64,000 nt of DNA, from NCBI GenBank assembly GCA_039194925.1, contig JBCCVV010000006.1, forward strand, positions 205 through 64,204. The letters are read 5' to 3'. Positions 2 to 36,919 of the stretch are shown in pieces; the first letter of the stretch is position 1, and every line of letters starts with the position of its first letter. The stretch is from Bacteroidota bacterium (GTDB taxonomy: Bacteria; Bacteroidota; Bacteroidia; Chitinophagales; Saprospiraceae). The position numbers and the translations under genes are program-made. The notes beneath the pieces are model-generated. The model was not told the DNA's origin. It saw only the letters and a program-made list of their open reading frames with translations, and ran no database searches.

Positions 2-460
2 GCACCAGAAGAAGAGCGTCTGGCTATGATGCCTCCATCCTATTGTAGTTCTTCTGGTTCAAATTTTAGTTACGAATATATTTCAAACGTCCAAATTGGT
101 ACACTAAACAACAGTTCTGCCGGCTCAAGTTATACTGACTATACCAGTATTGTAACGGATCTTCAGGCAGGACAGGTTTATACGATTACCATTACTCCGG
201 GTTGGCCCGGAAGTAGTTATAATGAAGGGTATGGTGCCTGGATTGATCTCAATCAAGATGGTGATTTCGATGATCCTGATGAACAAATTGCTTTGATTGA
301 TCCTACAAATTCCTCTACAGTCACCAGCACATTTCTACTCTCCAATATCGCGACGACAGGACAAACGAGGATGCGGGTATCCATGAAATATAATGATGCA
401 CCAACCTCATGTGAAACTTTTAATTATGGGGAGGTTGAAGATTATACGATCAATATTTTG
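2..460 (+). other. GEVED domain (partial at 5' end) of ORF1
   Basis: GYGAWIDLNQDGDFDD ... MRVSMKY ... CETFNYGEVEDYTINI, the signature C-terminal GEVED motif. Confidence 0.7.
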
Positions 461-15400: not shown

Positions 15401-16339
15401 GATCAGGCATGCATGCAGGCTACCCTGCACTTGTTAGTTTTTGATGATATCGCCATCAAACTAAGAGTCTATCTTGAAGGAGCCTTAATGCAAAATGGCG
15501 GGGCTGTTTCTTCTACGGGAAGACCTCTGATGCGTGATAATTTAAGAGTAAGTCCATTTACAGGATTAAATTATATTCCGTTGTATGACCCATATACGAT
15601 TTCTGCCGATCCATTTGTAGGAACTCCGAGTAGATATAATAAAATCGGTCCGGGCCAATTGGCAGAAAATCAAGAAATTACCGATTCATTGGGTGTCTTT
15701 GGAGTGATTGGAGAAAACGCAATTGTCGATTGGGTGCACGTTGAGTTACGTTCAAAAGACGACTATACGATACCCATTGCTACACGTTCTGGCTTGTTGC
15801 AACGAGACGGTGATATAGTTGATCTGGATGGAGTCTCTGACCTTCGTTTTAATGCCGTAAATGTGGATAGCTTCTATGTTGTGGTCAAACACAGATCTCA
15901 TCTCGGAGTAATGTCCGAAAAGGTTGGATTCGCTGAGACAGTGGATTTTACATCAACTTCATATCCAGTCTTCAATTTTGAAATCAAAGAGTTGAATGAT
16001 TATTCGGGATTATCGCAAAAAAATGACCTCTTACCAGGTTATTCTGCGCTGTGGGCGGGTGATTTTGACTCGAATGGAAAAATCAAATTTACCAACCCTT
16101 CTGATGATCAAAACGTGTTGTTTTTCAACGTATTATTCTCGTCTCCAGACTTTCTTATCAATTATGATCAGGCTTATGGTTATATGACAGGTGATTTTAA
16201 TATGAATAGTAAATCCAAGTTTACCAACCCTAGTGACGATATCAACTTCTTATTTAGTCAAATTCTTTTATATCCTTTGAACAGTTCATTCTTGTCGAAT
16301 TATAACTCACTGATTGAACAAGTACCTGAGGACGAGTAG
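2..16339 (+). CDS. Giant modular cell-surface adhesin-like protein, 5'-truncated by the window edge (frame open from nt 2; >=5445 codons)
   Basis: One uninterrupted ORF. Modules in order: GEVED motif (NYGEVEDYTINI), unknown Cys-rich module, propeller-like region, DUF11-like repeat, CBM-like module, PA14, Ig-like/SprB-like tandem repeats. Then ~21 Big_2-like 75-aa units (ICxGETTxLSP..GGxWxSS...IATV..G.VT....GT..FTFT...GC), cadherin/VCBS-like repeats (NDSDAEGD) and the conserved C-terminal module. Confidence 0.9.
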   Translation, partial: APEEERLAMMPPSYCSSSGSNFSYEYISNVQIGTLNNSSAGSSYTDYTSIVTDLQAGQVYTITITPGWPGSSYNEGYGAWIDLNQDGDFDDPDEQIALIDPTNSSTVTSTFLLSNIATTGQTRMRVSMKYNDAPTSCETFNYGEVEDYTINILAPNSALCNTECTTPYYFNWYDGTSGAEWAITNGETSVQNVYTVSGDQGDYNVTVTMSNPDGQNIDFSNCAVPLERAYTATCNDPNGDANCDGDNGTTDSQFSYGCGYLTFGVTSNNSSEYTSITYEFEFPAYICGLEIGDIDYAGASYPSLTSYQDEVDVVADSMGVPVVINAAVGPAVDVYNNNTTAVKLLAEYTNPYSGDILPNDPAGHAYITTANRVTSITFTYSNGPDDEGQSDDHAIRLAGFDFCPTSQVEICVNGIDDNANGYIDNFDPGCPLYAPFDCDKTLFQTRSPDNGSTYYLDTITRSPVTFNQLHNLTANGMTAAGFNATAYNPQDRYIYGLNPLKSDSYQMYRINALGAVQFIGNVTGLTGTNDAGAFSQDGRYYVFGASGRLYEIDIFSYAANEIANLGFAGGDIVVNPADGLIYTWNSDANQLYSIDPSNGNATAIGSPNSQYTEFGSLFANEQGDIIGYGNDANVTGTSQETLVSINPATGIVTPIEVGPEVTYNDGCSCAFGVGMTKEASVSVVEPGNSLTYTFNVYNRTDSILTNLTFIDNLPTGLTFSSNPYNVTGMSLGSASISGSSSANFTINSLAPGVNSFMVDVSIPLTFCSDIENQARIEGLPSSLGSAIVSDDPSTGEIADATTTLISNCEEYWIEAECEQVGANWNVVVDSTASRYSYASIMTGFNSLGSAPTGADDRIRFNVTITNAGNYNIFARVLAPNSSDDSFWVRANGGTWYRWNGLNDFAASDWAWGQVWNSDAGNAVVTFPLVSGANTIDIAYREDGTRLDKIKVALNNQVPTGEGGISTNCPEICDNGEDDDGDGLVDCADDDCGGEAVCQGPCIPEKLFVERWFGISGTAITDLTSHPNYPNSPDELDYIDLFQGPNGYADNYGTRVRGFVIPNESGTYTFNVTGDDNTVLYLSTDVNETNKTEIASVTGWSGVTEHNKYAVQTSVDIELLANVWYYVELLVKEGTGGDHFQVYWRTPSQPSTWNIIPGTQLAPFICPEICDNGEDDDNNGLTDCLDPYCENGVNVYITSADNVICLGESATLDAEFLGSPGTLTYAWSNGAGSASTANVSPNVTTTYVVTVTNTNGCTATDQMVVTVNDLPTAGASNDGPITCSQPIVRLAATPVGMSYLWPGGETTQTADITVAGTYIVTVTDSNGCTDTASTVVTDDIVPPVADAGADVAICFGESTNLTASGGGSYAWSNGAGNTAAVSVSPTSSTTYTVTVTAANGCTDTDMVTVTVTPLPVSSINAVNTICEGTTVSINAADAGAGATYSWDFGANATPQTASGIGPHDVVYDNDHVTGNDVQNTITLDVVLNGCTDQFTDNISIDAIPDVTVSSTSPSCGVDDGTITFTFPDNTSRTNIEFSIDGGASYPHDFSDNIGSATVSSLASGTYDLYVRWGNTNCPIDLPDVMLSDNTVPTANAGSDDEICIGENTTLTATGGTSYVWSNGAGSTASVNVSPTTTTTYTVTVTAANGCTAEDNVTVTVHALPVVSASNDGPITCSQPNVILTASPAGMTYAWQGGGSNQTKTVSATGSYSVTITDANGCTNVASTTVAIDTISPTANAGADNEICIGENTTLTASGGVSYIWSDGAGSTASVNVSPTTTTTYTVTVTAANGCTAEDNVTVTVHALPVVSASNDGPITCSQPNVILTATPAGMTYAWQGGGSNQTKTVTTTGSYSVTITDANGCTNVATTIVTDDLTPPAADAGSDDEICIGESTTLTASGGIAYSWSNGAGSTASVNVSPTITTTYTVTVTAANGCTAEDDVTVTVHALPVVSASNDGPLTCAQTSVILTALPAGMTYSWDTGGSNQTETVTSTGTYSVTITDANGCTNVATTVVTDDLTTPVADAGSDVEICIGESTTLSASGGIAYIWSNGAGNTASVTVSPTTTTTYTVIVTAANGCQDIDDVTVTVNPLPTVGATNDGPLTCVQNNVILSATPAGMTYSWDTGGSNQTETVTTTGIYSVTVTDANGCTNVANTTVAIDTISPTANAGLDDEICIGESTTLTATGGVSYEWSNGAGNTASVNVSPTTTTVYVVTVTAANGCTDEDNVTVTVHALPVVSASNDGPITCSQPNVILSATPTGMTYAWQGGGSNQTKTVTATGSYSVTITDSNGCTNVATTIVTDDLTNPIADAGLDDEICIGESTTLTASGGVSYEWSNGAGNTTSVTVSPTITTTYTVTVTAANGCQDTDDIIVTVNPLPIVGATNDGPLTCAQNSVILTATPAGMIYSWDTGGNNQTETVTSTGTYSVTVTDANGCTNVTSTTVAIDTISPTPDAGMDDEICIGDNINLTATGGISYVWSEGAGTTATVNVSPVTTTTYVVTVTGANGCTSEDNVTITVHPLPIVSASNDGPITCSQPNVILTAFPAGMTYEWEGGGSNQTKTVSATGTYSVTITDANGCRNVASTTVTDDLIPPVANAGTDTEICIGESTNLTASGGVSYAWSDGAGSSSSVSVSPTTTTTYTVTVTAANGCQHTDDVIVTVNPLPIVSVTNDGPLTCAQNSVILTATPAGMLYSWDTGGSNQTETVTATGTYSVTITDANGCTNVANTTVSIDTISPNANAGLDDEICIGENTILTASGGVSYEWSEGAGNSALVTVSPTTTTTYTVTVTASNGCTDEDYVTITVHPLPVVSASNDGPITCNQPNVILTAFPAGMTYEWEGGGSNQTKTVSATGTYSVTITDANGCRNVASTTVTDNVDPPIAEAGPDDLICEGLSTDLTATGGVSYEWSHSAGNTASVTVNPTSTTTYTVTVTGANGCTAEDNVTVSVDPKPTVGISGSDIICIQTTTTLSPNSGGTWRSSDNSIAIVSSSGIVYGLTPGTASFIFTSSATGCESDTTAEVIVTPNISVDIDFSGGICLEDDSELTANVTGGTLNFTYNWSGPNGFTANTQVIDANVSGNYYVTVTDAAGCSDNTSAYIYAAYEPFIFTLSTEVCEDEDVTLSVNSATAVAYQWSANAGSATTQTVLVSPGLPSEDYFVTVTNDLGCTSEATIHIDVKPKTPVNVTGDDEICIGETTTLSPTTGGSWVSADNTIAGVTDDGTVTGLAPGTVTFTFYDSTLNCESNPTLPVTVLQRPPASISGPDAICVRENTTLSPATGGTWESSDTTIAMVTNGGIVTAVAEGNVRFVWTDSATGCVSNATTDLTVYPLVPTSFTGPTSVCEGSQTYLSPTTGGTWTSNDTTIATVSDIGVVTTLAPGTVTFTFTSQYTCVSDATTPLMVMPKDIITISGDSEVCEDDVITLIPTSPGGSWVSGNTSIATVNSGGQVTGIAQGSATITYLHDPATCAIDPTFVVTVLGKPDVWVSGPVEICTGDVTSVSASSPSGIWSSSDESIALVSVDGTVVGMSGGTATFSYTDTQTCVSDASVPVIVNPPVDVDIDYIGSVCLEDDTKLVASPSGGTPGFSYSWSGPGGFTSNLDTIDIVLSGLYNVLVTDGEGCSSNKTAYVYEAYNPFIFTLDTEICEGEDVTLSVNGSSGGTYQWSANTGSLTSQSVTVTPSVPGETYYVTITSPQGCTTVANTVIDVEQLPVINLTGQDSICMGQTTTFTPGIGGVWSSSNYDVASITNSGVVTALSPGAVTFTFRDTSSGCYSAESTNITVNANDNILINGDGDLCLGIPETLTASVLGGTWSSSNPGIASIDAMGAVTPIAEGSTTILYTPAPNTCYNVGTHTMSVNTIPTVDVNGPSTICEGEITYLVPSNGGTWESSDTTVATVNAIGIVTGVSGGSASFTFTSTAGCIQTLSAPINVVPTPVVSLTGPSSICIDESTTLSPTSGGIWLSSNNLVASVSSSGVVLGKSAGTAQFTFIEIINGCISSNVIEVTVDPRPNVTGLGDSNICIGETTTISPSTGGSWTSSDTTVATITSSGLITAVGAGAATFTYTDASTGCSSYASSALTVDGRPTINISGATELCVGDNSSILPNSGGVWSTSDVSVATITSDGTITAVSAGTVTFTYTSDLTGCSSLASDVFTVSNPTTANITGTSILCIGATGNLVGSESGTWTSSNNAIATVNSAGVVTGHAPGMVTITLNTTASCITNPTYDVQVEPNPNPIYTGSTSLCLGETTSLSPTTGGIWTSSNDAIATIDHTGNVTTLTSGVVNFSFTDTLSGCSGTTSSSLSIFELPEVEISGNNIICVGETTSMSPSSGGSWSSNNTAVATINSNGVVTAISAGTATFTYTETGTSCTSLASEPVTVLARPNASITGSTTLCVGETSTLSPTTGGSWISSDESVATVTDQGVVTAVAQGVARFTFVANNGCASNQTSPIIVFGIPSIGVDGVTELCVGESAQMLPSSGGLWVSSNELVATITNDGVVTTLSPGTVSFTFTDSSTGCISDASEILTISAIPNTAINGPSSICIGSTTNFTPTAGGVWSSVDPSVASIQNNGDVTGISAGTVRFIFTNLTTGCVSDTSSAIIVTTESTPIYIGSDVICIGDTTYLSPSSGGTWESTNTEVATIDNSGMIIGVGQGTARFRFTNSTTGCVSDFSTTLTVNGVGTVFVNGSSSICIGTSTTLSPSSGGSWVSLSPGVAVVSSSGVVTGVTAGTANFVFTDSITGCSSDGSLGVIVQDFTEISINSTGGELCIGYTLQMTTSTSGGVWTSSNKDIASISNSGIVRGRAPGKVTFTYTESIAGCVNSSTSDTLVVNNCMNHDFNVAVIDQQIFGNVSTNDNYPTTASYSSTPQLVSKPDASIATFTINADGSYSFQGNKAGNYRYNVPVCLDPIYTGCPTSMIEFTLVENQYSTGNPVTNLDIATMFGVEEAGKYAKNDSAFWISTIQNDVCIYTLGCDMDWSSAWLESNASNGWAEIMPGGIIEYTPDVGYIGFDTIYYGICADGYSNCNNTMQIMTINHSSAQNTVVAADDFQFTLRETAVSGNLLTNDSDAEGDSILVTPQGAFMAPIITSAGQYYIDALGNFNFTPNGLFSGHTEIIYEICDDNPDQACMQATLHLLVFDDIAIKLRVYLEGALMQNGGAVSSTGRPLMRDNLRVSPFTGLNYIPLYDPYTISADPFVGTPSRYNKIGPGQLAENQEITDSLGVFGVIGENAIVDWVHVELRSKDDYTIPIATRSGLLQRDGDIVDLDGVSDLRFNAVNVDSFYVVVKHRSHLGVMSEKVGFAETVDFTSTSYPVFNFEIKELNDYSGLSQKNDLLPGYSALWAGDFDSNGKIKFTNPSDDQNVLFFNVLFSSPDFLINYDQAYGYMTGDFNMNSKSKFTNPSDDINFLFSQILLYPLNSSFLSNYNSLIEQVPEDE
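479..1215 (+). other. Uncharacterised ~245-aa Cys-rich module (copy in ORF1; paralogous copy in ORF3 at 26644-27390)
   Basis: Colinear match between ORF1 and ORF3: C.T/ECxTPYxFxWxDG, NPDGQNIDF(S/T)NC, CNDPNG(D/N)xNCDGD, SQF(S/T)YGC, IGDID(Y/H), FTYSNGPDD(E/D)GxSxDHAIRxxGF(D/E)FCP. I recognise no named family. Confidence 0.6.
2423..2860 (+). other. CBM-like / galactose-binding-like module of ORF1
   Basis: EYWIEAECEQVGANWN...DDRIRFNVTITNAGNYNIFARV...DDSFWVRANGGTWYRW...GANTIDIAYREDGTRLDKIKV. This pattern is typical of bacterial carbohydrate-binding modules; the family is not assignable by eye. Confidence 0.55.
3001..3490 (+). other. PA14 domain of ORF1
   Basis: ERWFGISGTAITDL...YGTRVRGFVIPNESGTYTFNVTGDDNTVLYLS...YYVELLVKEGTGGDHFQVYWRTP. 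Confidence 0.7.
4778..8665 (+). repeat. Nine exact 432-nt (144-codon) in-frame tandem units, each one Ig-like 'A' plus one Ig-like 'B' domain
   Basis: The equivalent Ala codon of the xA(N/D)AG..(E/D)ICIGE motif recurs at 4778, 5210, 5642, 6074, 6506, 6938, 7370, 7802, 8234 and 8666, i.e. spacing is exactly 432 nt each time. More divergent copies flank the array at ~3590-4245 and 8666-8880. Confidence 0.95.
10681..16339 (+). repeat. Paralogous 3' block, copy 1 (SprB-like cassette + 15 Big_2-like units + cadherin-like repeats + CTD)
   Basis: Colinear at protein level with 20007-25649 and 31200-36851. The distance from the (V/I)D(Y/F) landmark codon to the stop is 5631, 5619 and 5622 nt in the three genes. 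Confidence 0.85.
15443..16336 (+). other. Conserved ~300-aa C-terminal module with paired dockerin-like loops (ORF1 copy)
   Basis: DDIAIKLRVYLEGAL...AIVDWVHVELRSKDD...RSGLLQRDGDIVDLDGVSDLRF...FYVVVKHRSHLGVMS...WAGDFDSNGKIKFTNPSDDQNVLF...TGDFNMNSKSKFTNPSDDINFLFSQILLYPLNSSFLSNYNSLIEQVPEDE. Confidence 0.8.
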
Positions 16340-16601: not shown

Positions 16602-19600
16602 ATGGAAGAAACAATACACTCAAGGAGTGCGCATGCACTTCATACACGGTATGCCGTTAGACGCTTTTATGCTGTCGCCATACTGATATTCTTCATCAGT
16701 GTATTGCCTTTGTCCGACCTTTTGGCTTGCAATTCTCCAACAACTTCTTTTCCAATTAATGAAGACTTTGAAACCAATTCAATTGTAAACTGGACTCAGG
16801 ATTCGGCAGATGATTTTAATTGGATAACAAACTCGGGAGGTACAACTTCAAATAACACGGGACCTACAGCAGCTTATAATGGTACATACTATGCTTACAC
16901 GGAAGCAACCTCTCCTAACAATCCGGACAAAGTGGCAAATTTGATTTCACCTTGTTTTTCTGTTCAAGCTGGATTTAGTACTGAATTATCCTTCGCATAT
17001 CACATGTATGGTGATGGTATGGGTGATTTTAATGTGGACATTTCAACCAATGACGGATCATCCTGGACCAATCTTTGGGGGCTAAGTGGTGATCAGGGCA
17101 ATGCATGGTCTACGCAAACTATTGATCTCTCTACCTATGCAGGTCAAGATGTATTGGTCCGATTTAATGTTATTACAGGCAACTTCAGATCCGACGTTTC
17201 GATTGATGATGTAGTGATTTCGAGCACACAAAATCTAACTTGTGACCCAGGTCATTTGACCGTTGAAAGATGGCTGGGAATATCTGGAAGTTCCGTATCC
17301 GATTTGACTTCTAATTCTAATTATCCCGATACTCCTTCTGAATCTGAAAACATAACCTCTTTCCAGGGACCAAATAGCTATGCAGAAAACTATGGTACCA
17401 GAGTTCGAGGGTATATAATTCCTTCAGAAACAGGGTCTTACATTTTTAATGTGACAGGTGATGATAATACTATACTTTATCTAAGTACCGATGGTCAGGA
17501 GTCAAATAAAACTGAAATTGCATCGGTTACAGGTTGGTCTGGAATTACCGATCACACAAAATACACTCAGCAAACTTCATCAACTTTAAATCTTACAGCA
17601 GGAGTTTCTTACTATGTAGAACTTCTTCACAAAGAAGGTGGAGGAGGAGACCATTTTCAGGTTTATTGGCAAACACCAAGTTCTTCTACATGGACGATTA
17701 TTCCAGGAGTAAATTTAGCCCCGTTTGGATGTCCTGAAATTTGCGGTGATGGAATAGACAATGATGGAAATGGAGACATTGATGGAACGGATTCAGTATG
17801 TGAAGAACACTGGTTGGAGGCAGAGTGTGCAACTATAGGTGCAAACTGGAATACGATTGCGGACGCCACGGCATCAAATGGCTTTCATTTGACAATTCAA
17901 TCCGGGAATAATTCACTTGGATCTCCACCAACTGGAGTTGATGATAGAATCCGATTTGATGTTAATATTACAACGGCTGGTATATACAATATTTTTGCTC
18001 GTGTCCAGGCACCAAGTACTGGTGATGATTCTTTTTGGGTTCGTGTAAATGAAGGAACCTGGTATAGATGGAATGAACTGAGTTCATTTGCAAGTTCTAG
18101 TTGGGAATGGGGTCAGGTCTGGGATTGGGATAATAGCAATACACCCTTGAGTTTTAATTTGATCACTGGTGCAAATACGATAGATTTTGCCTATCGTGAA
18201 GATGGAACCCTTTTGGATAAAATAGTAGTTACCACTGCATCGATCCCTCCTTCTGGAGAAGGAAATACAGCAGGTAATTGTTCAGAAATTTGCGATAATG
18301 GTATTGATGATGACGGGGATATGTTGGTCGATTGTGCCGACCCGGATTGTCTATCGTTTAGTTATGATGGCGGAACAATTTCGGGTGATGAGATTTATTG
18401 TACATCATTTACACCTGGAACCATTCTTTCATATACTGATCCTAGTTATTCGGGAGGCGCTTATACCACGCAATGGCAACAAAGTTCTGATAATGTAAAT
18501 TGGAATGATATTCCAGGTGAAACTGGATTGACATACTTGCCTGGTACCGTTGCCGCAACTACCTACTTCAGAAGAGTCACAAATGTAGGCGACTGCTTGC
18601 CAGAAATATATTCGAATGTTGTGATCAAGGAAATTGATGGAAGTTTACCCATTTGTATTGAGGACGAAAGCTTTGAGTTTGATTGCGAGGTGGGGTACAA
18701 AATTTCACCTACAGGTATTGGAATTCAAGGTCTCTCTAATGCTGCTCTTCGTGTATTGAATCCAACATTTATGGATTATTATATCGTTGAAGCTGCTTTT
18801 AGTGGCGGAACAAATGCGACAGAGCATGTAATCTTCAGCACTCTTGAAGGAGAGCAAAAAGTAGTAAACAAACAATACTTTGAGGGAGAAAGTGGCACTT
18901 CTGGAGATCGTTATTTCAGAACAATCCTTCCGGCATCTGACTCTATATTTCTTTCACACAACGGTGACAATGCTCTTGCTGAATCCTTTGCAGTATATAC
19001 CGTTGCTCCTATGGACAATTTCAGCAGTACTTCTAAAGGATATGAAAGCTTTGGTCAATCAGTACATGCAGAATTACTTCCAGGGGAGGACTATCGGGTA
19101 AGTTTTCCATTGATTAGTACTATTAATCATAAGGAAGCTTTTATTAATGTAAATCTGGCGAGTATTGTAAACGATGGAACCGAACTATTCATCGAAGCAA
19201 CGGGTGGTGGAGTTACTCTTATTGATACCATTACAGAACCCAATGAGGGGAATACATTGAATCTTGAGTTTATTAATTTGGAAGAAATTGCACCAGATGC
19301 GGATAGTCTACATATTACGATATCCTCACCTTCTTCCAGTGGACAGACAGCATTGATTTCAGGATATGTGGCAGCCATAGTGGAATGCGATCAAAACATT
19401 GTTATTGTCGGTGAAACGGATGCCGAATGCGTCTCGGTAGGTGATACTATTATCTACAATTACCAGGTTTACAATTTTGCCGATGTTGAATTCTTGAATT
19501 TATCAACAAGCTCTTCTTTGGGCGGAACGATAGAATTTGGAATTGATACCTTACCACCCAATAGCAATTATAGCGCTTCACAGGAAGTAGTCATTACGCA

Positions 19601-22600
19601 AGCTATGATCGATAATCCACCTTTGGTGAATTCTATTTCTGCTCTCGGTTGGAATTTTACGTTTGGAATAAAACCGTTTAATGATGCTCTTGGAGATACA
19701 CTTACAATATGTGAAATATGCGACGATGGGGTAGACAATGATGGAGATGGATTAACCGATTGTCTGGATCCTGATTGCGATGAAGATGTTACCATATTAA
19801 ACCCCGACCTAATCGTATGTGTTGGAGAAACCGTACAACTGCAATCTACCGATTCCGGTGTCGGATCTTGGGTGAGTAGCAATTCGAGTGTTGCAATTGT
19901 TTCTACAGATGGATTAGCGGTTGGTGTGGCACCAGGTCAAGCGACATTTACGTACACCTCATCAAGTGGATGCACAGGGGTCACAGGTACCTTTACAGTA
20001 GATCAAACCCTGGATGTAACCATTGATTACAATGGAAGCATATGTATTACCGCTGATTCTCAACTAAGTGCAATAGCAAGCAATGGTACACCAGGATATG
20101 CATATAATTGGACAGGGCCCAATGGGTTTACTGCTTCTGGACAAACGATAGATATACTGGAAAATGGTAATTATGACGTTACTGTAACGGATAGCAAAGG
20201 GTGCTCTACCAATACAACAGCTTTCATTTATGAACAATATGACCCATTTATATTTACGCTCAATTCCGAAGTTTGTGATGGTGAAGAGGTAACACTTTCA
20301 ATAAACGATTCCGATGGAGTGGCCTACCAATGGGGACCAAATGCTGGAAATGACACCTCTTCCAGCGTAACCGTCATACCATCGGCTCCAGCTACTACTT
20401 ATTTTGTTACCGTAACAAATTCAATTGGTTGCTCCACCACGGCATCAGCTGTAATTGATGTGATACCCAAACCCATAGTGGATGTGACTGGTTCAGACGA
20501 AATATGCATCGGGGGGACAACCCAGCTATCTCCAAGTTCGGATGGTATCTGGATAAGTGCAGATTATAGTATTGCCAATGTAAGTAATACCGGCCTTGTT
20601 ACCGGAACAGGTTTGGGAAGTGTATCTTTTATTTATAAAGAAGATTCTACGGGGTGCGATTCAGACCCTACGGAAATAGTCTCCGTTATTGACAACAACA
20701 CACCCGTAATTTCGGGTAATGATAATATCTGTTTTGGCGAAACTTCCACCCTTATTTCATCTGTGTCCGGTGGTACCTGGTTTAGTGATAATAATGCCAT
20801 TGCAACAGTTGACGCAAGTACTGGTGAGATTACTCCCATAACTCAGGGTACGGTCACCATTTCGTATATTCCACCATCTGAAGGGTGTTATCTCAATGCA
20901 TTTTATACCGTAAACACTCATAATAATCTGGTTCTTTCGCTTAATGGTCCTTCTTCCATTTGTGAGGGTTCTTTGACATATGTTTCTGCCAATACGAGTG
21001 GAACATGGACGAGTAGTGATGAAAGTGTAGCTACTATTTCCAATTCTGGAGAAATTACAGCAGTTGGTGCAGGAACAGTGACTTTATCATTCCTCTCTTC
21101 AGCAGGATGTACTGAGGTAATGGCAACTCCTGTAACGGTAATTGCTAATCCCGTTGTTTCATTAACTGGTCCGGGAGACCTATGCATAAATGAAACCACT
21201 ATATTGAGTCCATCATCCGGAGGGGTATGGATAAGCAGTAATAGTGGAGTGGCGAGTGTGAATAGTTCAGGTGTAGTAACTGCCAAGTCTCCAGGCACTG
21301 CATCTTTTACCTTCATAGAAACTAGTCACGGATGTATTTCAGAAAATAATGTTAGTGTCAATGTCAATTCACGGCCAACCATTTCATCTCCTTCGTCCAA
21401 TTCATTATGCATTGGAGAAACCGCTAATATTACACCTGCAAGTGGAGGAATTTGGCAAAGTTCCAATTCTTCCATAGCGAGTATTACCAATGATGGGACC
21501 ATAACAGCAATCAGTCAAGGAACAGTATCTTTTACGTTTACAAATAGTTTGACAGGATGTACTTCCAATGCTTCCTCGCCATTAACCGTTCAACCATCTC
21601 CGACCACAACATTTACAGGTCCCTCTTCAATCTGTCAAAATGAAACGACGACTATCTTACCCAATTCGGGAGGGTTTTGGTCAAGCTCTGATGTAACCAT
21701 CGCAACGATAACCAACCAAGGAATAATAACTGGTTTGTCACCTGGTACTGTAAGATTTATCTTTACGAATGGAAATTCAGGTTGTGTATCTGATTCAAGT
21801 GATGTACTTACTATTATTGAACCTAACGATGTGATCGTAACCGGACCAAGTAATATTTGTATTGGTGAGACATCTGCCTTATCTCCTGGTACAGGAGGTC
21901 AATGGACAAGCAGCAATATCGGCATTGCTACAGTCACCAATTCTGGAATTGTAACCGCAGTATCCCCTGGTTCAGTAACATTTACTTATCAAAATTCGAA
22001 TGGATGCAGCTCCGACCCTACTGAAGCGATTGTTGTAGAGGCAGCTCCTACATTAACATATTTGGGGTCAACTTCCATATGCATTGGAGAAAGTACTACG
22101 TTGAGTCCTTCCACTGGAGGTCAGTGGACAAGTAATAATACATCGATTGCGACCATCACGAATGAAGGTGTAGTGACTGCATTAGCTGCAGGTTCCGTTT
22201 CATTTACATTTACCAATAATGCTACAGGATGTTCGGCATCTATCTTATCAGATTTAACGGTAAATACTCCACCAACAATAAATGTAACTGGTGATGATGA
22301 AATTTGCATTGGAGAAACCACTACACTTCAACCCTCTACCGGTGGTGCTTGGATTAGTGGCAATAATAGTATTGCCAGTGTCATGACCAATGGTACGGTT
22401 ACCGGATTAAGTGCAGGAGTAGTAACCTTTACCTTTATTGAATCTGCAACGGGGTGTACTTCGGCCGCTTCGGCTCCAATAACTGTAGTTCCAGCTCCTG
22501 TTGTTTCCATCGATGGGGCAAATACAGTCTGTGCCGGTACAACAACAACTTTGTCTCCAAGCACAGGAGGTACATGGTCAAGTGATAATGAAGCAGTGGC

Positions 22601-25600
22601 CACAGTCACGAATTCAGGTATTGTGACAGGGATAAGCCAAGGGGTGGCGCGATTCACCTTCACCAATACAGAAGGATGTTCATCCAATCAAACAGCCCCT
22701 GTCATAGTCTTTGATAGTCCAAGTACATTAATTGATGGTCCGAATGCACTGTGCCTGGGAGAAACTGCGCAAATGCAGCCCTCAACAGGAGGAGTATGGC
22801 AAAGCAGTAATCCCTCAATTGCCACTATAAATAATTCAGGATTGGTATCTGCAATAATGCCGGGAACAGTCACCTTTACCTATACAGATGGCAGTACAGG
22901 TTGCATATCCAATCCGTCTGATCCAATCACTGTTGAGAATAATCCTGTAATTAATCTTACCGGACCCTCAGAGATTTGTATAGGAGAAACAACCCACATG
23001 ATTCCCTCAATTGGGGGCATTTGGACAAGCTTGAATACATCTGTTGCTACTATCCAAAACGATGGCGAAATAATCGGAATTGGTGGAGGACAAGCTAGAT
23101 TTATATTTTTAAACCTTGCTACAGGTTGTGTGTCGGACACCTCGGCGGCGATTACAGTTTTATCTGGCCCTTCTATTTCTTTTAATGGCCCCACCAATCT
23201 TTGTTTGGGAGATACTTCATACATTTTACCATTGACAGGGGGGACATGGGAAAGCTCGAATCCAGCTGTGGCTTCCGTGACAAACACAGGAATGATCATA
23301 GCTTTAGGTCCAGGAACAGCAACATTCCAATTTACCGAATCATCTTCAGGCTGTAAATCGGATTGGAGTGAAGCACTGACAGTCAATGGACCTCCAACGG
23401 TGGGCATTACAGGTCCTTCAGCAATTTGTATAAGCGCTACAACCAATCTTTTGCCTTCCAGTGGAGGAGTATGGACAAGTTTGAATCCAGGTATTGCTTC
23501 GGTTGATATGAATGGAGTTGTCACCGGATTAACAGAAGGGACGGCCTATTTTCAATTTATGGATAATGAGACGGGTTGTGTATCCGATGGAAGTCTTTCC
23601 ATTGAAGTTCAACCCACACCTGAAATTGAGATTACTGGAAGTAATGTAATTTGTTTGGGATACACCACAACACTTTCGCCTGGTATTTCGGGTATTTGGA
23701 CCAGTAGTAATCCCGCCATAGCCTCTGTCTCGAATTTGGGAGTAGTCACAGGGCTTGCACCTGGGGTTGTTAGTTTTCAGTTTATGGACCCTATAACGGG
23801 TTGTACTTCTAATGGATGGTCAGATCCTGTTTCGGTGACGAATTGTACCAATCATGATTTCAATGTGACCCTTGTAAATGAGGTAGTCTATGGTGATTTG
23901 AGTACCAATGATAATGTAAGTTCTACCGTATATGGAGGAGCAATAGAAACGTTAAGCAAGCCAACTGCCAGCTTTCCCCAGCTTACAGTAAATGCAGATG
24001 GTACCTATTCTTTTCAAGCCAATAGAGCAGGTAAATATCTGTTCAAAGTTCCCGTTTGCATAGCTCCAATACTTGTGGGATGTGAAGGAACGCTATTGGA
24101 AATCAATGTGGCGGATGATGTCTTGGTTGTGATGAATCCAATCGCCAATCTTGAGTTTACTACTACATACAAGGGAGCCTTATCTACGGATTCTGGTGAA
24201 ACGGTGGAAATAGATGCGTTGGCAAATGATACGTGTATCTACGCTGGATCTTGTCTCTTGGATGCTTCATCATTAACGATCCTTGGCACTCCTGAAAATG
24301 GAAACGCCTCGGTAAGCAATGGTAAGATTGAATATACTCCGGATGCAAATTTTGTGGGGCTGGATACTATTGATTATTCAGTGTGCCATTCCAATGGCAT
24401 TACCTGTTCACAATCCCAGGAAATTGTAATAGTCAACGATACTTCTGCTTTGAATTCTACTGTAGCTAATGATGATTTCTATTATCTACTGAGAGGATCT
24501 TCAGTTTCGGGAAATGTAATGCGAAATGATATGGATCCAGAGGGTGATGGAATTTCGGTCACTGCAGTTGGTTCATCATCCAGCCCAGCAGTAATTCCAG
24601 AAGGCGAATATTACATTACAAACACCGGAGAATTTTCATTCACACCCAACGCTGATTTCTTTGGAACTCTAAATATTGTGTATACGATCTGTGACGACAA
24701 TACCGAATCGTTCTGTACAAATGCTACGATACATTTATTGGTTTTGAATGATATGAGTATTCGACTTCGGGTATACCTTGAAGGAGCTTTAATCAATAAT
24801 GGAGGTGAAGAGACACAGGCAGGAATTCCCTTAATGCGTGATGATTTGCGTGTAAGTCCTTACACTGGCGAAAATTACATTCCACTCACCGATCCGTATA
24901 CATATGACCATGATCCATTTATTGATACCGAAAATAAGTTTGTGAAAATGGGCCCGGGGATGTTAAGCAATAATTTAACCATAGCAGATTCGCTTAAGGT
25001 ATTTAGTGTGTCAGGAGAAAATGCAATTGTGGATTGGGTGCATGTAGAAATAAGATCCAAAGAAGACAGCACTCAGATTATGGCTACCAGATCAGGGTTG
25101 GTACAACGAGATGGTGATGTGGTTGATCTGGACGGTGTAAGCAATTTGAGATTTCAAAATGTACAAGTAGACAGTTTCTATGTGGTTGTAAAACATAGAT
25201 CACATTTAGGAGTTATGTCGGAACTGATCACTAGTGACGATATCATTGATTTTACCGATCCTAACTTTCCGGTTTTTAACTTTGGAAACACCTACGGAAA
25301 TGGACTTGATTATACCGGATTGTCACGAAAAAATTCTGTGGCGTTTGGATTTTCTGCGCTTTGGGCGGGTGACTTTGATTCTAATGGAAAAGTAAAATTT
25401 ACGAATCCAGGAGATGATCAAAATATACTGTATTTGGGAGTACTATTAAGCTCGCCGGATTTCTTAATAAATTATAACAATGCATATGGATATTTTACCG
25501 GGGATTTTAATATGGATGGTAAGGCCAAATTCACTAATCCAGGAGATGATTTGAATTTTCTTTTTAGTCAAATCCTATTGTATCCTTTGAATACTTCATT

Positions 25601-25649
25601 CTTATCCAATTTCAGTGCATTGATAGAACAAGTGCCGGACCCAGAGTGA
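16602..25649 (+). CDS. Giant modular surface protein, paralog 2 (3015 aa): signal peptide, MAM, PA14, CBM-like, unknown module, DUF11-like, then the conserved 3' block
   Basis: Complete ORF. The N-terminus is MEETI...RRFYAVAILIFFISVLPLSDLLAC(43)N (signal peptide, possible lipobox). Domain motifs are listed in the sub-features. Confidence 0.92.
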   Translation: MEETIHSRSAHALHTRYAVRRFYAVAILIFFISVLPLSDLLACNSPTTSFPINEDFETNSIVNWTQDSADDFNWITNSGGTTSNNTGPTAAYNGTYYAYTEATSPNNPDKVANLISPCFSVQAGFSTELSFAYHMYGDGMGDFNVDISTNDGSSWTNLWGLSGDQGNAWSTQTIDLSTYAGQDVLVRFNVITGNFRSDVSIDDVVISSTQNLTCDPGHLTVERWLGISGSSVSDLTSNSNYPDTPSESENITSFQGPNSYAENYGTRVRGYIIPSETGSYIFNVTGDDNTILYLSTDGQESNKTEIASVTGWSGITDHTKYTQQTSSTLNLTAGVSYYVELLHKEGGGGDHFQVYWQTPSSSTWTIIPGVNLAPFGCPEICGDGIDNDGNGDIDGTDSVCEEHWLEAECATIGANWNTIADATASNGFHLTIQSGNNSLGSPPTGVDDRIRFDVNITTAGIYNIFARVQAPSTGDDSFWVRVNEGTWYRWNELSSFASSSWEWGQVWDWDNSNTPLSFNLITGANTIDFAYREDGTLLDKIVVTTASIPPSGEGNTAGNCSEICDNGIDDDGDMLVDCADPDCLSFSYDGGTISGDEIYCTSFTPGTILSYTDPSYSGGAYTTQWQQSSDNVNWNDIPGETGLTYLPGTVAATTYFRRVTNVGDCLPEIYSNVVIKEIDGSLPICIEDESFEFDCEVGYKISPTGIGIQGLSNAALRVLNPTFMDYYIVEAAFSGGTNATEHVIFSTLEGEQKVVNKQYFEGESGTSGDRYFRTILPASDSIFLSHNGDNALAESFAVYTVAPMDNFSSTSKGYESFGQSVHAELLPGEDYRVSFPLISTINHKEAFINVNLASIVNDGTELFIEATGGGVTLIDTITEPNEGNTLNLEFINLEEIAPDADSLHITISSPSSSGQTALISGYVAAIVECDQNIVIVGETDAECVSVGDTIIYNYQVYNFADVEFLNLSTSSSLGGTIEFGIDTLPPNSNYSASQEVVITQAMIDNPPLVNSISALGWNFTFGIKPFNDALGDTLTICEICDDGVDNDGDGLTDCLDPDCDEDVTILNPDLIVCVGETVQLQSTDSGVGSWVSSNSSVAIVSTDGLAVGVAPGQATFTYTSSSGCTGVTGTFTVDQTLDVTIDYNGSICITADSQLSAIASNGTPGYAYNWTGPNGFTASGQTIDILENGNYDVTVTDSKGCSTNTTAFIYEQYDPFIFTLNSEVCDGEEVTLSINDSDGVAYQWGPNAGNDTSSSVTVIPSAPATTYFVTVTNSIGCSTTASAVIDVIPKPIVDVTGSDEICIGGTTQLSPSSDGIWISADYSIANVSNTGLVTGTGLGSVSFIYKEDSTGCDSDPTEIVSVIDNNTPVISGNDNICFGETSTLISSVSGGTWFSDNNAIATVDASTGEITPITQGTVTISYIPPSEGCYLNAFYTVNTHNNLVLSLNGPSSICEGSLTYVSANTSGTWTSSDESVATISNSGEITAVGAGTVTLSFLSSAGCTEVMATPVTVIANPVVSLTGPGDLCINETTILSPSSGGVWISSNSGVASVNSSGVVTAKSPGTASFTFIETSHGCISENNVSVNVNSRPTISSPSSNSLCIGETANITPASGGIWQSSNSSIASITNDGTITAISQGTVSFTFTNSLTGCTSNASSPLTVQPSPTTTFTGPSSICQNETTTILPNSGGFWSSSDVTIATITNQGIITGLSPGTVRFIFTNGNSGCVSDSSDVLTIIEPNDVIVTGPSNICIGETSALSPGTGGQWTSSNIGIATVTNSGIVTAVSPGSVTFTYQNSNGCSSDPTEAIVVEAAPTLTYLGSTSICIGESTTLSPSTGGQWTSNNTSIATITNEGVVTALAAGSVSFTFTNNATGCSASILSDLTVNTPPTINVTGDDEICIGETTTLQPSTGGAWISGNNSIASVMTNGTVTGLSAGVVTFTFIESATGCTSAASAPITVVPAPVVSIDGANTVCAGTTTTLSPSTGGTWSSDNEAVATVTNSGIVTGISQGVARFTFTNTEGCSSNQTAPVIVFDSPSTLIDGPNALCLGETAQMQPSTGGVWQSSNPSIATINNSGLVSAIMPGTVTFTYTDGSTGCISNPSDPITVENNPVINLTGPSEICIGETTHMIPSIGGIWTSLNTSVATIQNDGEIIGIGGGQARFIFLNLATGCVSDTSAAITVLSGPSISFNGPTNLCLGDTSYILPLTGGTWESSNPAVASVTNTGMIIALGPGTATFQFTESSSGCKSDWSEALTVNGPPTVGITGPSAICISATTNLLPSSGGVWTSLNPGIASVDMNGVVTGLTEGTAYFQFMDNETGCVSDGSLSIEVQPTPEIEITGSNVICLGYTTTLSPGISGIWTSSNPAIASVSNLGVVTGLAPGVVSFQFMDPITGCTSNGWSDPVSVTNCTNHDFNVTLVNEVVYGDLSTNDNVSSTVYGGAIETLSKPTASFPQLTVNADGTYSFQANRAGKYLFKVPVCIAPILVGCEGTLLEINVADDVLVVMNPIANLEFTTTYKGALSTDSGETVEIDALANDTCIYAGSCLLDASSLTILGTPENGNASVSNGKIEYTPDANFVGLDTIDYSVCHSNGITCSQSQEIVIVNDTSALNSTVANDDFYYLLRGSSVSGNVMRNDMDPEGDGISVTAVGSSSSPAVIPEGEYYITNTGEFSFTPNADFFGTLNIVYTICDDNTESFCTNATIHLLVLNDMSIRLRVYLEGALINNGGEETQAGIPLMRDDLRVSPYTGENYIPLTDPYTYDHDPFIDTENKFVKMGPGMLSNNLTIADSLKVFSVSGENAIVDWVHVEIRSKEDSTQIMATRSGLVQRDGDVVDLDGVSNLRFQNVQVDSFYVVVKHRSHLGVMSELITSDDIIDFTDPNFPVFNFGNTYGNGLDYTGLSRKNSVAFGFSALWAGDFDSNGKVKFTNPGDDQNILYLGVLLSSPDFLINYNNAYGYFTGDFNMDGKAKFTNPGDDLNFLFSQILLYPLNTSFLSNFSALIEQVPDPE
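16728..17225 (+). other. MAM domain of ORF2
   Basis: CNSPTTSFPINEDFE..WTQDSADDFNWI...TGPTAAYNGTYYAYTEAT...ANLISPCFS...LSFAYHMYGDGMGDFNVDIS...WTNLWGLSGDQGNAWSTQTIDLS...VSIDDVVI. Confidence 0.75.
17241..17729 (+). other. PA14 domain of ORF2
   Basis: ERWLGISGSSVSDL...YGTRVRGYIIPSETGSYIFNVTGDDNTILYLS...YYVELLHKEGGGGDHFQVYWQTP. Confidence 0.7.
17802..18240 (+). other. CBM-like module of ORF2 (after PA14, the reverse of the ORF1 order)
   Basis: EEHWLEAECATIGANWN...DDRIRFDVNITTAGIYNIFARV...DDSFWVRVNEGTWYRW...GANTIDFAYREDGTLLDKIVV. Confidence 0.55.
20007..25649 (+). repeat. Paralogous 3' block, copy 2
   Basis: Same module order and unit count as 10681-16339 and 31200-36851. Confidence 0.85.
24747..25646 (+). 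other. Conserved C-terminal module (ORF2 copy)
   Basis: NDMSIRLRVYLEGAL...AIVDWVHVEIRSKED...WAGDFDSNGKVKFTNPGDDQNILY...TGDFNMDGKAKFTNPGDDLNFLFSQILLYPLNTSFLSNFSALIEQVPDPE. Confidence 0.8.
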
Positions 25650-25736: not shown

Positions 25737-25946
25737 CTATTTAGAATTAGATTTATGGTTGAAAATTTGACCAGAAAATTGCTGGATTGAAACACAGCAG
25801 CATGTTCTGTAATTCATCTTATTGATTGGTTTTGAAAGCCAGTCTGGGTTATTTGATGTACCGAGAAACTTACCATTTCTTTCAAATAATTAAAATTAAA
25901 GGACGAGTTACATAAGGACAAGTAGGGCACATGTTTTCAACTTAAT

Positions 25947-28900
25947 ATGGACGAAACAATAATGCTGATGAACTCATGCAAATACCCTTACGTTGCTAAG
26001 TTTATGCAGAACACGTTGTGGTTTGCATTCTTACTATTTGCAGTTGGTTATACCACTGCATGTTCCAATCCCACGTCGACTTTTCCAATAGTAGAAGATT
26101 TTGAAACGAATGCCCTGGTCAATTGGACCCAGGATTCAGGAGATGATTTCAACTGGTCCATCAACACTGGTGCTACTACTTCAGGAAGTACCGGACCAAG
26201 TGGAGCATACAGCGGCTCCTATTATGCATATACCGAAGCCACGACACCCAATAACCCAAATAAAATAGCAAATCTTATTTCTCCTTGTTTTACAGTTCAG
26301 TCAGGGACTACCACACAGATATCGTTTGCCTACCATATGTATGGGAATGGTCAGGGAACATTCAATCTGGATATTTCTACAAATGATGGAAGTTCATGGA
26401 CCACACTTTGGTCATTATCAGGCAATCAAGGGGACGTCTGGCGAGTACAATCACTAAATCTGAACCCATACATTGGGCAAGATGTATTACTTAGATTTCA
26501 CGTAGAAACAAATTCGTATCAATCCGATGTAGCCATAGATGATGTTGTACTTACAACTTCCAGTACAGGAGAAATATGTGATGATGGCATTGATAACGAT
26601 GGAGATGGGCTAATAGATGAGTACGATCCCGATTGTGGAGTGGTCTGCTACAATGATTGTGAGACACCCTATACCTTTGATTGGTTTGATGGATCAGGTT
26701 CAGGTGCAGTATGGAATATTACAAATGGGCAAAGTTCACTTACCAGAGTATATACCATTTCCGGGTCACAAGGAGAGTATAATGTTAGTGTTACACTGGA
26801 TAATCCGGATGGTCAGAATATTGATTTTACCAATTGTGGTACACCCGGAGGTACTTCTCATTTTTACACAGGAACATGCAATGATCCGAATGGAAATACC
26901 AATTGCGATGGAGACCCCAATACCAATGACTCACAATTCACCTATGGTTGCGATTTTCTCACGTTTGGTATTACTTCTGATAACGGCGATCAAAAAACAT
27001 CCTTTACCTACGATTTTGAATTTCCCTCTCAGATTTGCAACATGTTGATTGGCGATATTGATCACCAGGGTTGGGCATTCAACTCTCAGGATAGTTGGCA
27101 GGACGAGGTCGAAGTGGTAGCCATGAATAATGGAGTGCCAGTAGCGATCAACGCTGTAGTAGGAAGTAAGGTGAATGTATTTAACAACAATACCGATAGT
27201 CTTGTCTTGATCTCCGAATACAATGGTACATTAACTGGAGACCTTGTACATACCGATCCGGATGGTCATGCGACGATTACTACCTTAGATAAGGTTACAT
27301 CAATCAAATTTACCTATTCCAATGGCCCCGATGATGATGGACCAAGTAACGATCATGCCATTCGAATCAATGGTTTTGAATTTTGCCCGGAGGAAAAAGT
27401 AGAAATTTGCAATAACGAGATTGACGATGATGACGATGGCTTGGTCGATTGTGAGGATATAGATTGTGGAATGTTGGATAATATAGAATTCAAGGATGGA
27501 ACAGCGAATTGGAATTTATATAATCAGAGTGTTAATCAAAGTACATTTACCATTGATAATACCGGACAAATTTCAGGAAATAATTCCGCAAGGATTGACA
27601 TTACAGAGATTGGTTCTCAGGAGTGGTTTACTATCTTCGAACAAAATGGAGCAAGTATTGAAAGCGGAAAGACTTACCGTATCCACTTTAGCGCAAAAGC
27701 GAACATTAGTAGAGAAATTCAGGTATTAGTACAAAAAACGGGATTTCCATTTACGACATATTTCATCCAAGATGTTCCTATAGCTAATTTTAACGGAGAA
27801 TATGTATATGAATTTACAGCAACTACTTCGGATAATAGTGTCGATTTAACTTTCCACCTGGGACAAGCATTGGGAACCGTATGGTTGGATAAAATACAGT
27901 TGAAAGAAGTATGTCCTGATCCGGAATGTATTCTACCTTCTGATGATGGATTTGATATATGCAGCGGAGAAGTATTATCTGGAACAGTATCTACCAATGA
28001 CGCTGCCCCAACAAATTATTTCAATACCGTTTATCAAGTAACTACGCCTCCATCGAATGGAAATGTTGTCATGCAAGACGATGGAAGTTTTGTATATACC
28101 CCGGATTCAGGTGCAGCTGGAACGGATAACTTTGTTTACGAAAGATGCTATTCTTTCAAAAATGATGTAGGTTTATCAAATCTTATTTATAACCCTTGTG
28201 GTGAAGGAAAAATAATCGAGACCTTCATGGAAGGAATCGAAGGTGAAACGAATCCATCGATTGCCATTACGAATCCAACAGATTTTTCCCGGATTTTTGT
28301 GGAGGTTTGGGCTGAGTCTTCGTGCAGCTCAGTGACTATAGAAGGACAGGTAGCGACTGAAAATATTATTTACAGATCTAATGGATCACCGGATACAGAG
28401 CGAATTTACCGAGTAGAATTGAATTCTGTAAGCACAGATGGATTGATCGATATTTCAAGCACTGGAGGATGCACATTATCCAGCGCAGCAGCATATGTGG
28501 AGAGAGTTCAACCGAGTGGACAAGGTTCATCAAGTTTGGTCATAAGTGATATTGATTTGTTTTATAATTATGTTGGTGGAGATGATTGCTTCATCTACAG
28601 TATGCCGATAGGAACAAGCGATACCAATAGAGACATTACATTTGTTATCCCGCTTCATGAAAAAGATAATACAAGAAACGTAACTGCAAAAGTAATTGCC
28701 GGATCTGTATCAGAAATTGATTCTACTTCTTCGTGGTCTGCTATAGGTGAAGGTGCAGGAGTGATCGAAATTACCCTTTCCAATGTTCCTGGAAGTGTAA
28801 ACGTAGCAACCATTGAAGTATGTTCACCTAATGGTAATGGTGATTCATTTGGTGTAGGAATTATATCAGCGACAAGTTTGATTTGTACTGCAGAGCCTGT

Positions 28901-36851: not shown

Positions 36852-36878
36852 TACACAGACACCTTTTTTAATTCTCCA

Positions 36879-36919
36879 GGACCGTATTAGGGTGACTGCC
36901 TTGATGCGGTTCTTTTTTT
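36879..36919 (+). terminator. Rho-independent terminator after ORF3
   Basis: ggaccgtat (36879-36887) pairs with atgcggttc (36904-36912), 9 bp including 2 G-U pairs and extendable inward. It is immediately followed by T7 (36913-36919). Confidence 0.7.

Follow-up and report, generated by a model that had tools for sequence, protein, structure and literature searches.

T9SS (type IX secretion system) cargo is currently defined by C-terminal domains (CTDs) of type A, type B and the ChiA-like type C. A C-terminal unit of another kind, the type II X-module-dockerin of the Clostridium thermocellum scaffoldin CipA/ScaA, binds the type II cohesins of cell-anchored scaffoldins (PDB 2b59, 4u3s, 3kcp and 4fl4). 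Here, we describe a module of ~300 amino acids (aa) that closes three consecutive giant open reading frames (ORFs) in a 64,000-nucleotide stretch of a Saprospiraceae genome (the whole stretch analysed is referred to as the window), and we compare it with both kinds of unit. The module is built of a wrap of ~90 residues, a beta-sandwich with a conserved polar site and a divergent duplicated dockerin, and is well supported as a real, large, unnamed and Bacteroidota-wide C-terminal domain. By analogy, it would be the Bacteroidota counterpart of the X-module-dockerin unit that ends clostridial scaffoldins. We read it, with a rough probability of 0.5, as a cell-proximal and probably Ca-dependent docking or anchoring end that binds a partner at the cell surface.

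PorV is the carrier of type A CTD proteins, which are either released or attached to surface lipopolysaccharide (LPS) (PMC10994853), and LPS-dependent anchoring has been shown in Cytophaga (PMC12860637). For type B cargo, an adjacent PorP/SprF-like carrier gene is described, as in SprB-SprF (PMC9143113). A further example of such a pairing comes from the same class as the present bacterium, Saprospiria, namely the giant 5,898-aa grappling-hook protein GhpA of Aureispira with GhpB and GhpC (bioRxiv 10.1101/2024.01.29.577165). GhpA was considered as a possible identity for the module and rejected, as it has a canonical T9SS CTD and PorP/PorE neighbours. Literature searches on dockerins or cohesins in connection with the T9SS or with these taxa, and on piggy-back T9SS export, returned nothing relevant.

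The three giants lie one after another on the + strand at 26-16339, 16602-25649 (3015 aa) and 25947-36851 (3634 aa). The frame of giant 1 is open at the window start (bases 2-25 are stop-free) and the protein is therefore longer than 5437 aa; the ATG at position 26 is probably internal, with the true N-terminus upstream of the window. The modules occupy 15443..16336, 24747..25646 and 35949..36848 and share 68-69% pairwise identity (82% mean column identity). As the original prediction had held, they are the best-conserved part of the giants: blocks of 100 columns are 59-81% identical within the final ~300 columns, but mostly 40-60% identical within the 1700 columns that precede them. Its intervals for the first two modules are in frame; the third (35951-36848) is out of frame and contains many stops, and the correct start, shifted by 2 nucleotides (nt), is 35949. 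All the motifs it quoted are present: LRVYLEGAL, NAIVDWVHVE(L/I)RSK, ATRSGL.QRDGD.VDLDGVS, KHRSHL, both copies of GD(F/Y)(D/N)..(N/D)(G/S)K.K(F/Y)TNP.DD.N.L and the terminal LIEQVP(E/D). A family profile scores the giants at E values of ~1e-136 (module 1) to 1e-139, a likeness much greater than chance would give, and has no other match in the window.

In module 1, read from the in-frame translation, the wrap and beta-sandwich together span 15443..16048, with the wrap motifs LRVYLEGAL, LMRD.LR and IP..DPY and three near-invariant motifs within the sandwich, i.e. AIVDW (15716-15736), QRDGD.VD.DG (15800-15832) and HR.HL (15887-15904). These are followed by two dockerin-like loop-helix repeats, the first at 16049..16138 (LWAGDFDSNGKIKFTNPSDDQNVLFFNVLF; residues 203-232, helix 222-231) and the second at 16181..16270 (YMTGDFNMNSKSKFTNPSDDINFLFSQILL; residues 247-276, helix 266-275), and by the terminal LIEQVP at 16310..16327, after which only EDE and the stop codon are found. 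The equivalent repeats are located at 25359-25448 and 25491-25580 in giant 2 (LIEQVP at 25620-25637) and at 36567-36656 and 36699-36788 in giant 3 (LIEQVP at 36828-36845).

The structure of the module was predicted with AlphaFold2 (AF2) from a 50-sequence alignment, giving one compact domain (pLDDT 91.4, pTM 0.92). The stretch of residues 1-90 is largely coil, with some short helices and the first strand, residues 94-203 form the beta-sandwich (DSSP strands 94-103, 111-120, 124-126, 133-137, 143-150, 153-158, 166-168, 193-197 and 200-203), and the two loop-helix units and a short tail follow. The top Foldseek matches in the PDB are the C. thermocellum type II X-module-dockerins 2b59_B, 4u3s_B and 3kcp_A, which are weak (E 0.025-0.14, probability 0.84 for the best, TMt 0.28-0.48 overall and 0.46-0.48 for the best, rmsd ~5 Å) and are ranked ahead of transthyretin-like sandwiches.

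Homology to bona fide dockerins was detected through a distant homologue, protein P0202 (1313 aa), which contains five internal tandem module-like units, each composed of a sandwich and a canonical dockerin with 12-residue loops and each ending in SPVYYW. Their alignment with the module starts at AIVDW, takes in QRDGD and HRNH and reaches the WAGD..DG loop that opens the canonical dockerin, and one unit passes the Pfam Dockerin_1 model (E 6e-8; 33.2 bits, the cutoff being 22.9). When a profile of 72 family C-termini was compared with the five P0202 dockerins using hhalign, both loops were placed in register (probability 94%, E 1.3e-7), each module loop being four residues longer than the canonical one (16 versus 12). 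The two repeats are tandem segments in which an EF-hand-type loop, with conserved D/N at positions 1, 3 and 5 and a last D, is followed by a helix. Judged on sequence, the C-terminal third of the module is thus well supported as a divergent dockerin, in agreement with the dockerin-like loops proposed originally, and both loops would be predicted to bind Ca. P0202 also shows that, in another lineage, a module-like unit can be located inside a protein.

Residue conservation was computed over 156 family representatives at ≤60% identity. In the sandwich, the D and W of the DW pair and both H of H-R-N-H are found in 100% of the representatives, and the Q, R, D and G of QRDGD in 98%, 95%, 98% and 98%, respectively. 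Positions 1, 3 and 5 of the first loop are D or N in 78-97% and its last position is D in 97%; the second loop has D at position 1 in 100%, D or N at positions 3 and 5 in 98% and D at its last position in 97%. The terminal motif retains its Q and P in 96% each, the protein stops exactly at the P in ~44% of the representatives, and a LIEQVP-type motif is kept even where the module is internal (the first module of protein P0121). The QRDGD.VD.DG loop, itself DxDxDG-like, and H-R-(N/S)-H (15800-15832 and 15887-15904 in module 1, with equivalents in modules 2 and 3) are more conserved family-wide than the dockerin-like repeats, so that the sandwich may hold a third site for a metal or ligand.

Pfam (2025), NCBIfam (June 2026) and the PDB served as the reference sets for known families. 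The last 200 aa of each giant gave no NCBIfam match even at E ≤ 10, the last ~400 aa gave none in Pfam or NCBIfam at E ≤ 1 save for the preceding Big_9/cadherin-like repeat, and no PDB sequence matched the module, which is not a named family in Pfam, NCBIfam or the searchable literature. The original prediction that the giants have no recognisable T9SS CTD is borne out for all three types. Neither of the type A models (TIGR04183 and PF18962) matched at E ≤ 10 in NCBIfam or at E ≤ 1 in Pfam and NCBIfam, while the neighbouring gene product of 50715-51944, used as a control, scored E 1.3e-11 with TIGR04183. The modules likewise matched neither type B model (TIGR04131 and PF13585), for which the control 58220-59503 scored E 3.1e-8 with TIGR04131, just below the cutoff, and the type C model (NF033708) gave no match at E ≤ 10. 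The type A CTD noted earlier on 53841-58013 is also present (TIGR04183, E 3.7e-4, just below the cutoff). In the AF2 model, the terminal ~100 aa of the module are loop-helix and form no canonical CTD beta-sandwich.

An exhaustive HMMER search of 1.84 billion representatives identified 10,269 proteins with the module at E ≤ 1e-3, of which 2,309 reach E ≤ 1e-30. The 150 best of the 10,269 are up to 7,457 aa long, and in nearly all of them the match runs to the final residues of the protein; the pattern [..]Q[VIL]P lies ≤8 residues from the end in 217 of 262 family proteins. Among 119 module genes from genome and metagenome loci, 0-8 aa follow the module in almost all, and up to 26 aa do so mostly in Flavobacteriia. 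The 79 best genome loci are all from Bacteroidota, and the carriers include Saprospiraceae, relatives of Lewinella and Haliscomenobacter, Spirosomataceae (Runella, Spirosoma, Emticicia and others), Chitinophagales and a few Flavobacteriales. As in this window, module genes frequently stand in tandem, with 2-4 to an array, and their products typically begin with a Sec signal peptide. Proteins of ~317-347 aa consisting of a signal peptide and the module alone are common, and P0121 and P0122 carry two tandem modules each. Members are named 'hypothetical protein' in the databases, except for one PGAP record that reads 'hemagglutinin protein', a name whose source is explained by no NCBIfam model.

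The stand-alone signal peptide-module genes, sometimes two or three in tandem, adjoin a gene for an ~808-aa CarboxypepD_reg/TonB-dependent-receptor/OMP_b-brl_3 barrel in four loci (L001:10001-14869, L028:1379-6237, L033:9920-16262 and L035:283-6506). In a different genome, a stand-alone module directly follows an ECF sigma factor and FecR-like anti-sigma pair (L004:8228-10954), and other neighbours of stand-alone modules are, by reading, unrelated (topoisomerase-like and BNR/sortilin-like).

When 331 neighbour proteins were clustered, no PorP/SprF-like or other conserved non-giant neighbour was found apart from a single recurrent family. Its members share a domain of ~150 aa, here termed the N-domain, which many full-length module proteins also carry directly after the signal peptide and which heads surface proteins of Saprospiraceae, Spirosomataceae and Chitinophagales (for example L087:8556-13566, L030:11062-13382 and L042:10894-11457, all outside the window). 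A hidden Markov model (HMM) of the N-domain matches 91 genes in the loci, of which 31 have the module at the other end and 60 are separate genes, many of them directly downstream of a module gene; a word-indexed search with the N-domain profile gave only 9 proteins. Small N-domain proteins are of two kinds, the first with a signal peptide and the N-domain only (~187-226 aa, often ending in C..CN(L/V/I)TAP.LSK) and the second with an additional tail (~255-400 aa). The tails of N-domain neighbours match TIGR04183 in 21 of 30 cases and CVP-CTERM in two, and large module-less N-domain proteins end in a type A CTD or, in one case, a type B CTD. Four different C-terminal ends are thereby paired with the N-domain, i.e. 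the module, the type A CTD, the type B CTD and CVP-CTERM, so that the C-terminal slot is filled either by the module or by a sorting domain. The CVP-CTERM tails (L037:17700-19838 and L081:14685-15947) are Cys-rich, of the form CCP…C(V/I)P…KK.KK, and correspond to NF058574, the 'CVP-CTERM putative sorting domain'.

The N-domain is present in 45 of the 79 genome loci, and 18 of the 31 module proteins with complete N-termini but without an N-domain of their own have a separate N-domain gene ≤3 genes away. Two loci from a look-up seeded with the N-domain illustrate the arrangement. In L087, a run of genes with overlapping stops and starts encodes, in order, an Ig_7-module protein, an N-domain-module protein, an N-domain protein, a Big_9-module protein and an N-domain protein with a type A CTD; in L090, a 2017-aa giant with both N-domain and module is followed by an N-domain gene. 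A genomic and architectural link between the module and the N-domain, which is often fused to T9SS type A CTDs, is therefore well supported, and the linkage is strong, though not universal. No Pfam match at E ≤ 10 was obtained with 25 N-domains, nor a PDB sequence match, and cohesin (PF00963) was not detected. In the AF2 model of protein P0083, which carries both domains, the N-domain is a moderate-confidence beta-sandwich separated from the module by a disordered linker (pTM 0.69). The top PDB fold match of this model is 4fl4_C, the cohesin9-X-dockerin chain of CipA, over 478 columns (E 7.5e-3, weak); lower-ranked and likewise weak are CBM3b (E 0.04-0.15) and the SdbA type II cohesin (E 0.7).

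The type II X-module-dockerin resembles the module in that a beta-sandwich is joined directly to a dockerin of duplicated Ca-loop/helix units, the whole closing a secreted protein of very large size and many domains, and the role proposed here, non-covalent tethering of the giant to a separately anchored partner, would also be the same. Stand-alone, adaptor-like and anchor-like partner architectures occur in both systems. Unlike the clostridial unit, the module belongs to Gram-negative Bacteroidota and not to a Firmicute, has the extra ~90-aa N-terminal wrap, 16-residue instead of 12-residue loops and an invariant polar site in the sandwich, falls short of the Dockerin_1 threshold, and has as its candidate partner an unnamed domain instead of a detectable cohesin. 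As with T9SS CTDs of types A, B and C, it is found at the C-terminus of Sec-exported, repeat-rich Bacteroidota surface proteins and takes the same slot on N-domain proteins, but it is ~300 aa long instead of 55-100, has another terminal fold and no HMM similarity, and also occurs internally, in tandem and on its own. The pairs of type B cargo and PorP/SprF are alike in combining a giant Ig-repeat adhesin with a dedicated anchoring partner encoded alongside; in those pairs, however, a cargo with a canonical type B CTD is matched by an outer-membrane beta-barrel as partner, whereas the module cargo has no CTD and its candidate partner is a small soluble domain that itself bears a type A CTD.

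The module fills the C-terminal slot of T9SS domains, and the lectin-like domains of giants 2 and 3 (MAM, PA14 and CBM) are N-terminal, at the opposite end of the protein; we therefore read the module as the cell-proximal docking end. It would bind its partner non-covalently and probably in a Ca-dependent manner, and the partner would itself use the T9SS for export and anchoring. The N-domain is the best candidate for this partner, bound in the manner of an X-dockerin and a cohesin, although our confidence in it as the specific partner is lower than that in docking as such. Since the N-domain also heads other module proteins, such binding would allow head-to-tail chains. Ca binding, docking, the choice of partner and the way in which the giants pass the outer membrane are all inferred here. 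For this passage, the most interesting possibility is docking in the periplasm followed by co-export.

Carried to its full extent, the docking proposal becomes a cellulosome-like two-part assembly of giant adhesins in Bacteroidota, in which the X-dockerin-like module would plug into a cohesin-like N-domain. The small N-domain proteins carry a T9SS type A domain and would therefore supply the secretion signal in trans (piggy-back T9SS export), after which N-domain proteins would hold the giant on an LPS-anchored surface layer and proteins with both N-domain and module would act as adaptors that daisy-chain giants into long fibres. We consider this complete scheme improbable, though worth stating. 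Of the two explanations that accompanied the original prediction, the cohesin-dockerin-like tether thus gains a concrete candidate in the N-domain, often fused to a type A CTD beside module genes, with the reservation that none is encoded in the window. The undescribed sorting or anchoring module would fit the lack of a match to any known family or CTD, but its option of an autonomous signal is weakened, because the P0202 units are internal and tandem ahead of a T9SS-like tail of their own and because the signal peptide-module proteins have no cargo.

Several observations weigh against docking, and against the N-domain as the partner in particular. Tandem arrays of paralogous surface-protein genes, with termini being shuffled among them, could also account for N-domain and module genes being neighbours, and it is because of this that we place docking no higher than about 0.5. 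No N-domain ORF was found in the 64-kb window and no adjacent N-domain gene beside the closest MAM-type relatives (L006 and L007, with modules 72-74% identical), and so the partner is hypothetical for these three genes; the chromosome of L007 (OZ246013.1) does encode N-domain proteins ~95 kb away (L030), among them one with a CTD at L030:11062-12207. The N-domain is not packed against the module in the P0083 model, and all the fold matches, for the module and for P0083, are non-significant (E ≥ 0.007). Pfam Dockerin_1 (PF00404) stays below its gathering threshold, with no match at E ≤ 1 when the final ~400 aa of each giant were searched; at E ≤ 10, only 2 of 72 diverse family C-termini gave Dockerin_1 (best 0.14), and 10 further hits fell to EF-hand families and 1 to FG-GAP, all sub-threshold. 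Taken with the P0202 homology, the module is therefore dockerin-like by homology and architecture and not a Pfam member. The most invariant residues (MRD.LR, P..PY, DW, QRDGD.VD.DG and H-R-N-H) lie in the sandwich and wrap and not in the dockerin helices, a hint that dockerin-type binding is not the module's function, or not its only one, and this invariant site is accounted for in full by none of the explanations offered here. Docking by itself also leaves unexplained how giants without a CTD cross the outer membrane.

It is on this export route that the main rival arises, namely direct recognition of the module by the T9SS. The module would then represent a new, fourth class of T9SS targeting and anchoring domain, recognised by the translocon or a dedicated carrier, and the N-domain proteins would be unrelated paralogues or downstream carriers. 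Such a class would fit the strictly C-terminal position of the module behind Sec signal peptides in a T9SS-bearing phylum, its alternation with type A, type B and CVP-CTERM ends on proteins that share the N-domain and the lack of another evident outer-membrane route for module proteins; that non-canonical signals exist is illustrated by the ChiA-like type C model of NCBIfam. Known CTDs, however, are 7-stranded beta-sandwiches of ~80-100 aa at the very end of the protein (PMC10994853), whereas the module ends in loop-helix units and draws no score from any A, B or C model at E ≤ 10. A signal would also have to account for the P0202 units, which are internal and tandem in a protein with a T9SS-like tail of its own (weak matches to the models of type C and type A), for the tandem modules of P0121, and for signal peptide-module proteins that would be signals without cargo. 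On this balance, we judge a fourth class unlikely.

An alternative that takes the invariant residues as its starting point is that the module is a ligand-binding (lectin- or 'hemagglutinin'-like) domain, which would hold an external ligand or the cell's own LPS or capsule glycan through the polar site of the sandwich, the loops being structural Ca sites only. The clustering of near-invariant residues in sandwich and wrap (M-R-D-x-L-R, D-W, Q-R-D-G-D and H-R-N-H) is in line with this, as are the existence of stand-alone secreted copies, the position of some of these next to the 808-aa TonB-receptor-like barrel (4 loci) or, in one case, after the ECF sigma/FecR pair, and the single PGAP name. 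No likeness to CBM or lectin families was found in Pfam or the PDB, though, and a strict C-terminal position with lectin domains at the N-terminus is more in keeping with an anchor than with a tip; recurrence of the stand-alone contexts is confined to a few related genomes, and the 'hemagglutinin' name is traceable to no model. We hold this explanation, too, to be doubtful. An ordinary type A or B CTD that has diverged past easy recognition, which could be expected of a genome that uses the T9SS and has both types on neighbouring genes, is effectively refuted by the failure of PF18962, PF13585, TIGR04183, TIGR04131 and NF033708 to match at E ≤ 10, by the predicted non-sandwich fold of the terminal 100 aa and by the absence of any CTD structure from the top 50 PDB fold matches.

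Tethering of the cohesin-dockerin type is already known; its form, the phylum and the coupling to the T9SS would be new. Secretome predictors that rely on the type A, B and C models would miss thousands of very large, signal peptide-bearing, adhesin-like proteins in environmentally abundant Bacteroidota (Saprospiraceae, Spirosomataceae, Chitinophagales and some Flavobacteriales). If the module is indeed a docking end, a cohesin-dockerin-type assembly coupled to the T9SS would exist on a Gram-negative outer surface, and the export and retention of giants without a CTD would become testable in cultured Runella, Spirosoma, Emticicia, Lewinella and Haliscomenobacter. Even when read with the greatest caution, these results define two large unnamed domain families, that of the module and that of the N-domain, which deserve Pfam or NCBIfam models.

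The N-terminal bodies of giants 2 and 3 were annotated with Pfam. Giant 2 (16602..24746) has a signal peptide with lipobox-like LLAC, MAM, PA14/GLEYA and Big_2 and Ig_7 repeats, the last repeat being Big_9/cadherin-like; giant 3 (25947..35948) has a signal peptide with TTAC, MAM, CBM_4_9, a weak F5/8 type C domain, nine Big_2, Ig_7 and Big_9/cadherin-like repeats. The signal peptides proposed earlier for both are present, and in each (16602-16760 and 25947-26080) the hydrophobic segment closes in a lipobox-like Cys (LSDLLAC-NSP and GYTTAC-SNP, the hyphen following the Cys), for which reason the two proteins may be lipoproteins rather than signal peptidase I (SPase I) substrates. Most other members of the module family, unlike these two, have plain SPase I-type signals.

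The intergenic gaps between the giants are 262 and 297 nt long and have short similar stretches in common just past the stop codons. A + strand terminator-like site is found only in the second of them (25824-25844), and a strong terminator-like hairpin, with 16 pairs followed by a T run, lies at 36878-36913, 27 nt past the stop of giant 3. Further along the window, the 1390-aa product of 53841-58013 matches Pfam Dockerin_1 significantly at residues 1060-1108 (E 9.7e-6), in addition to having its near-threshold type A tail; the same genome therefore contains both the divergent module and dockerin-like repeats of the canonical kind.

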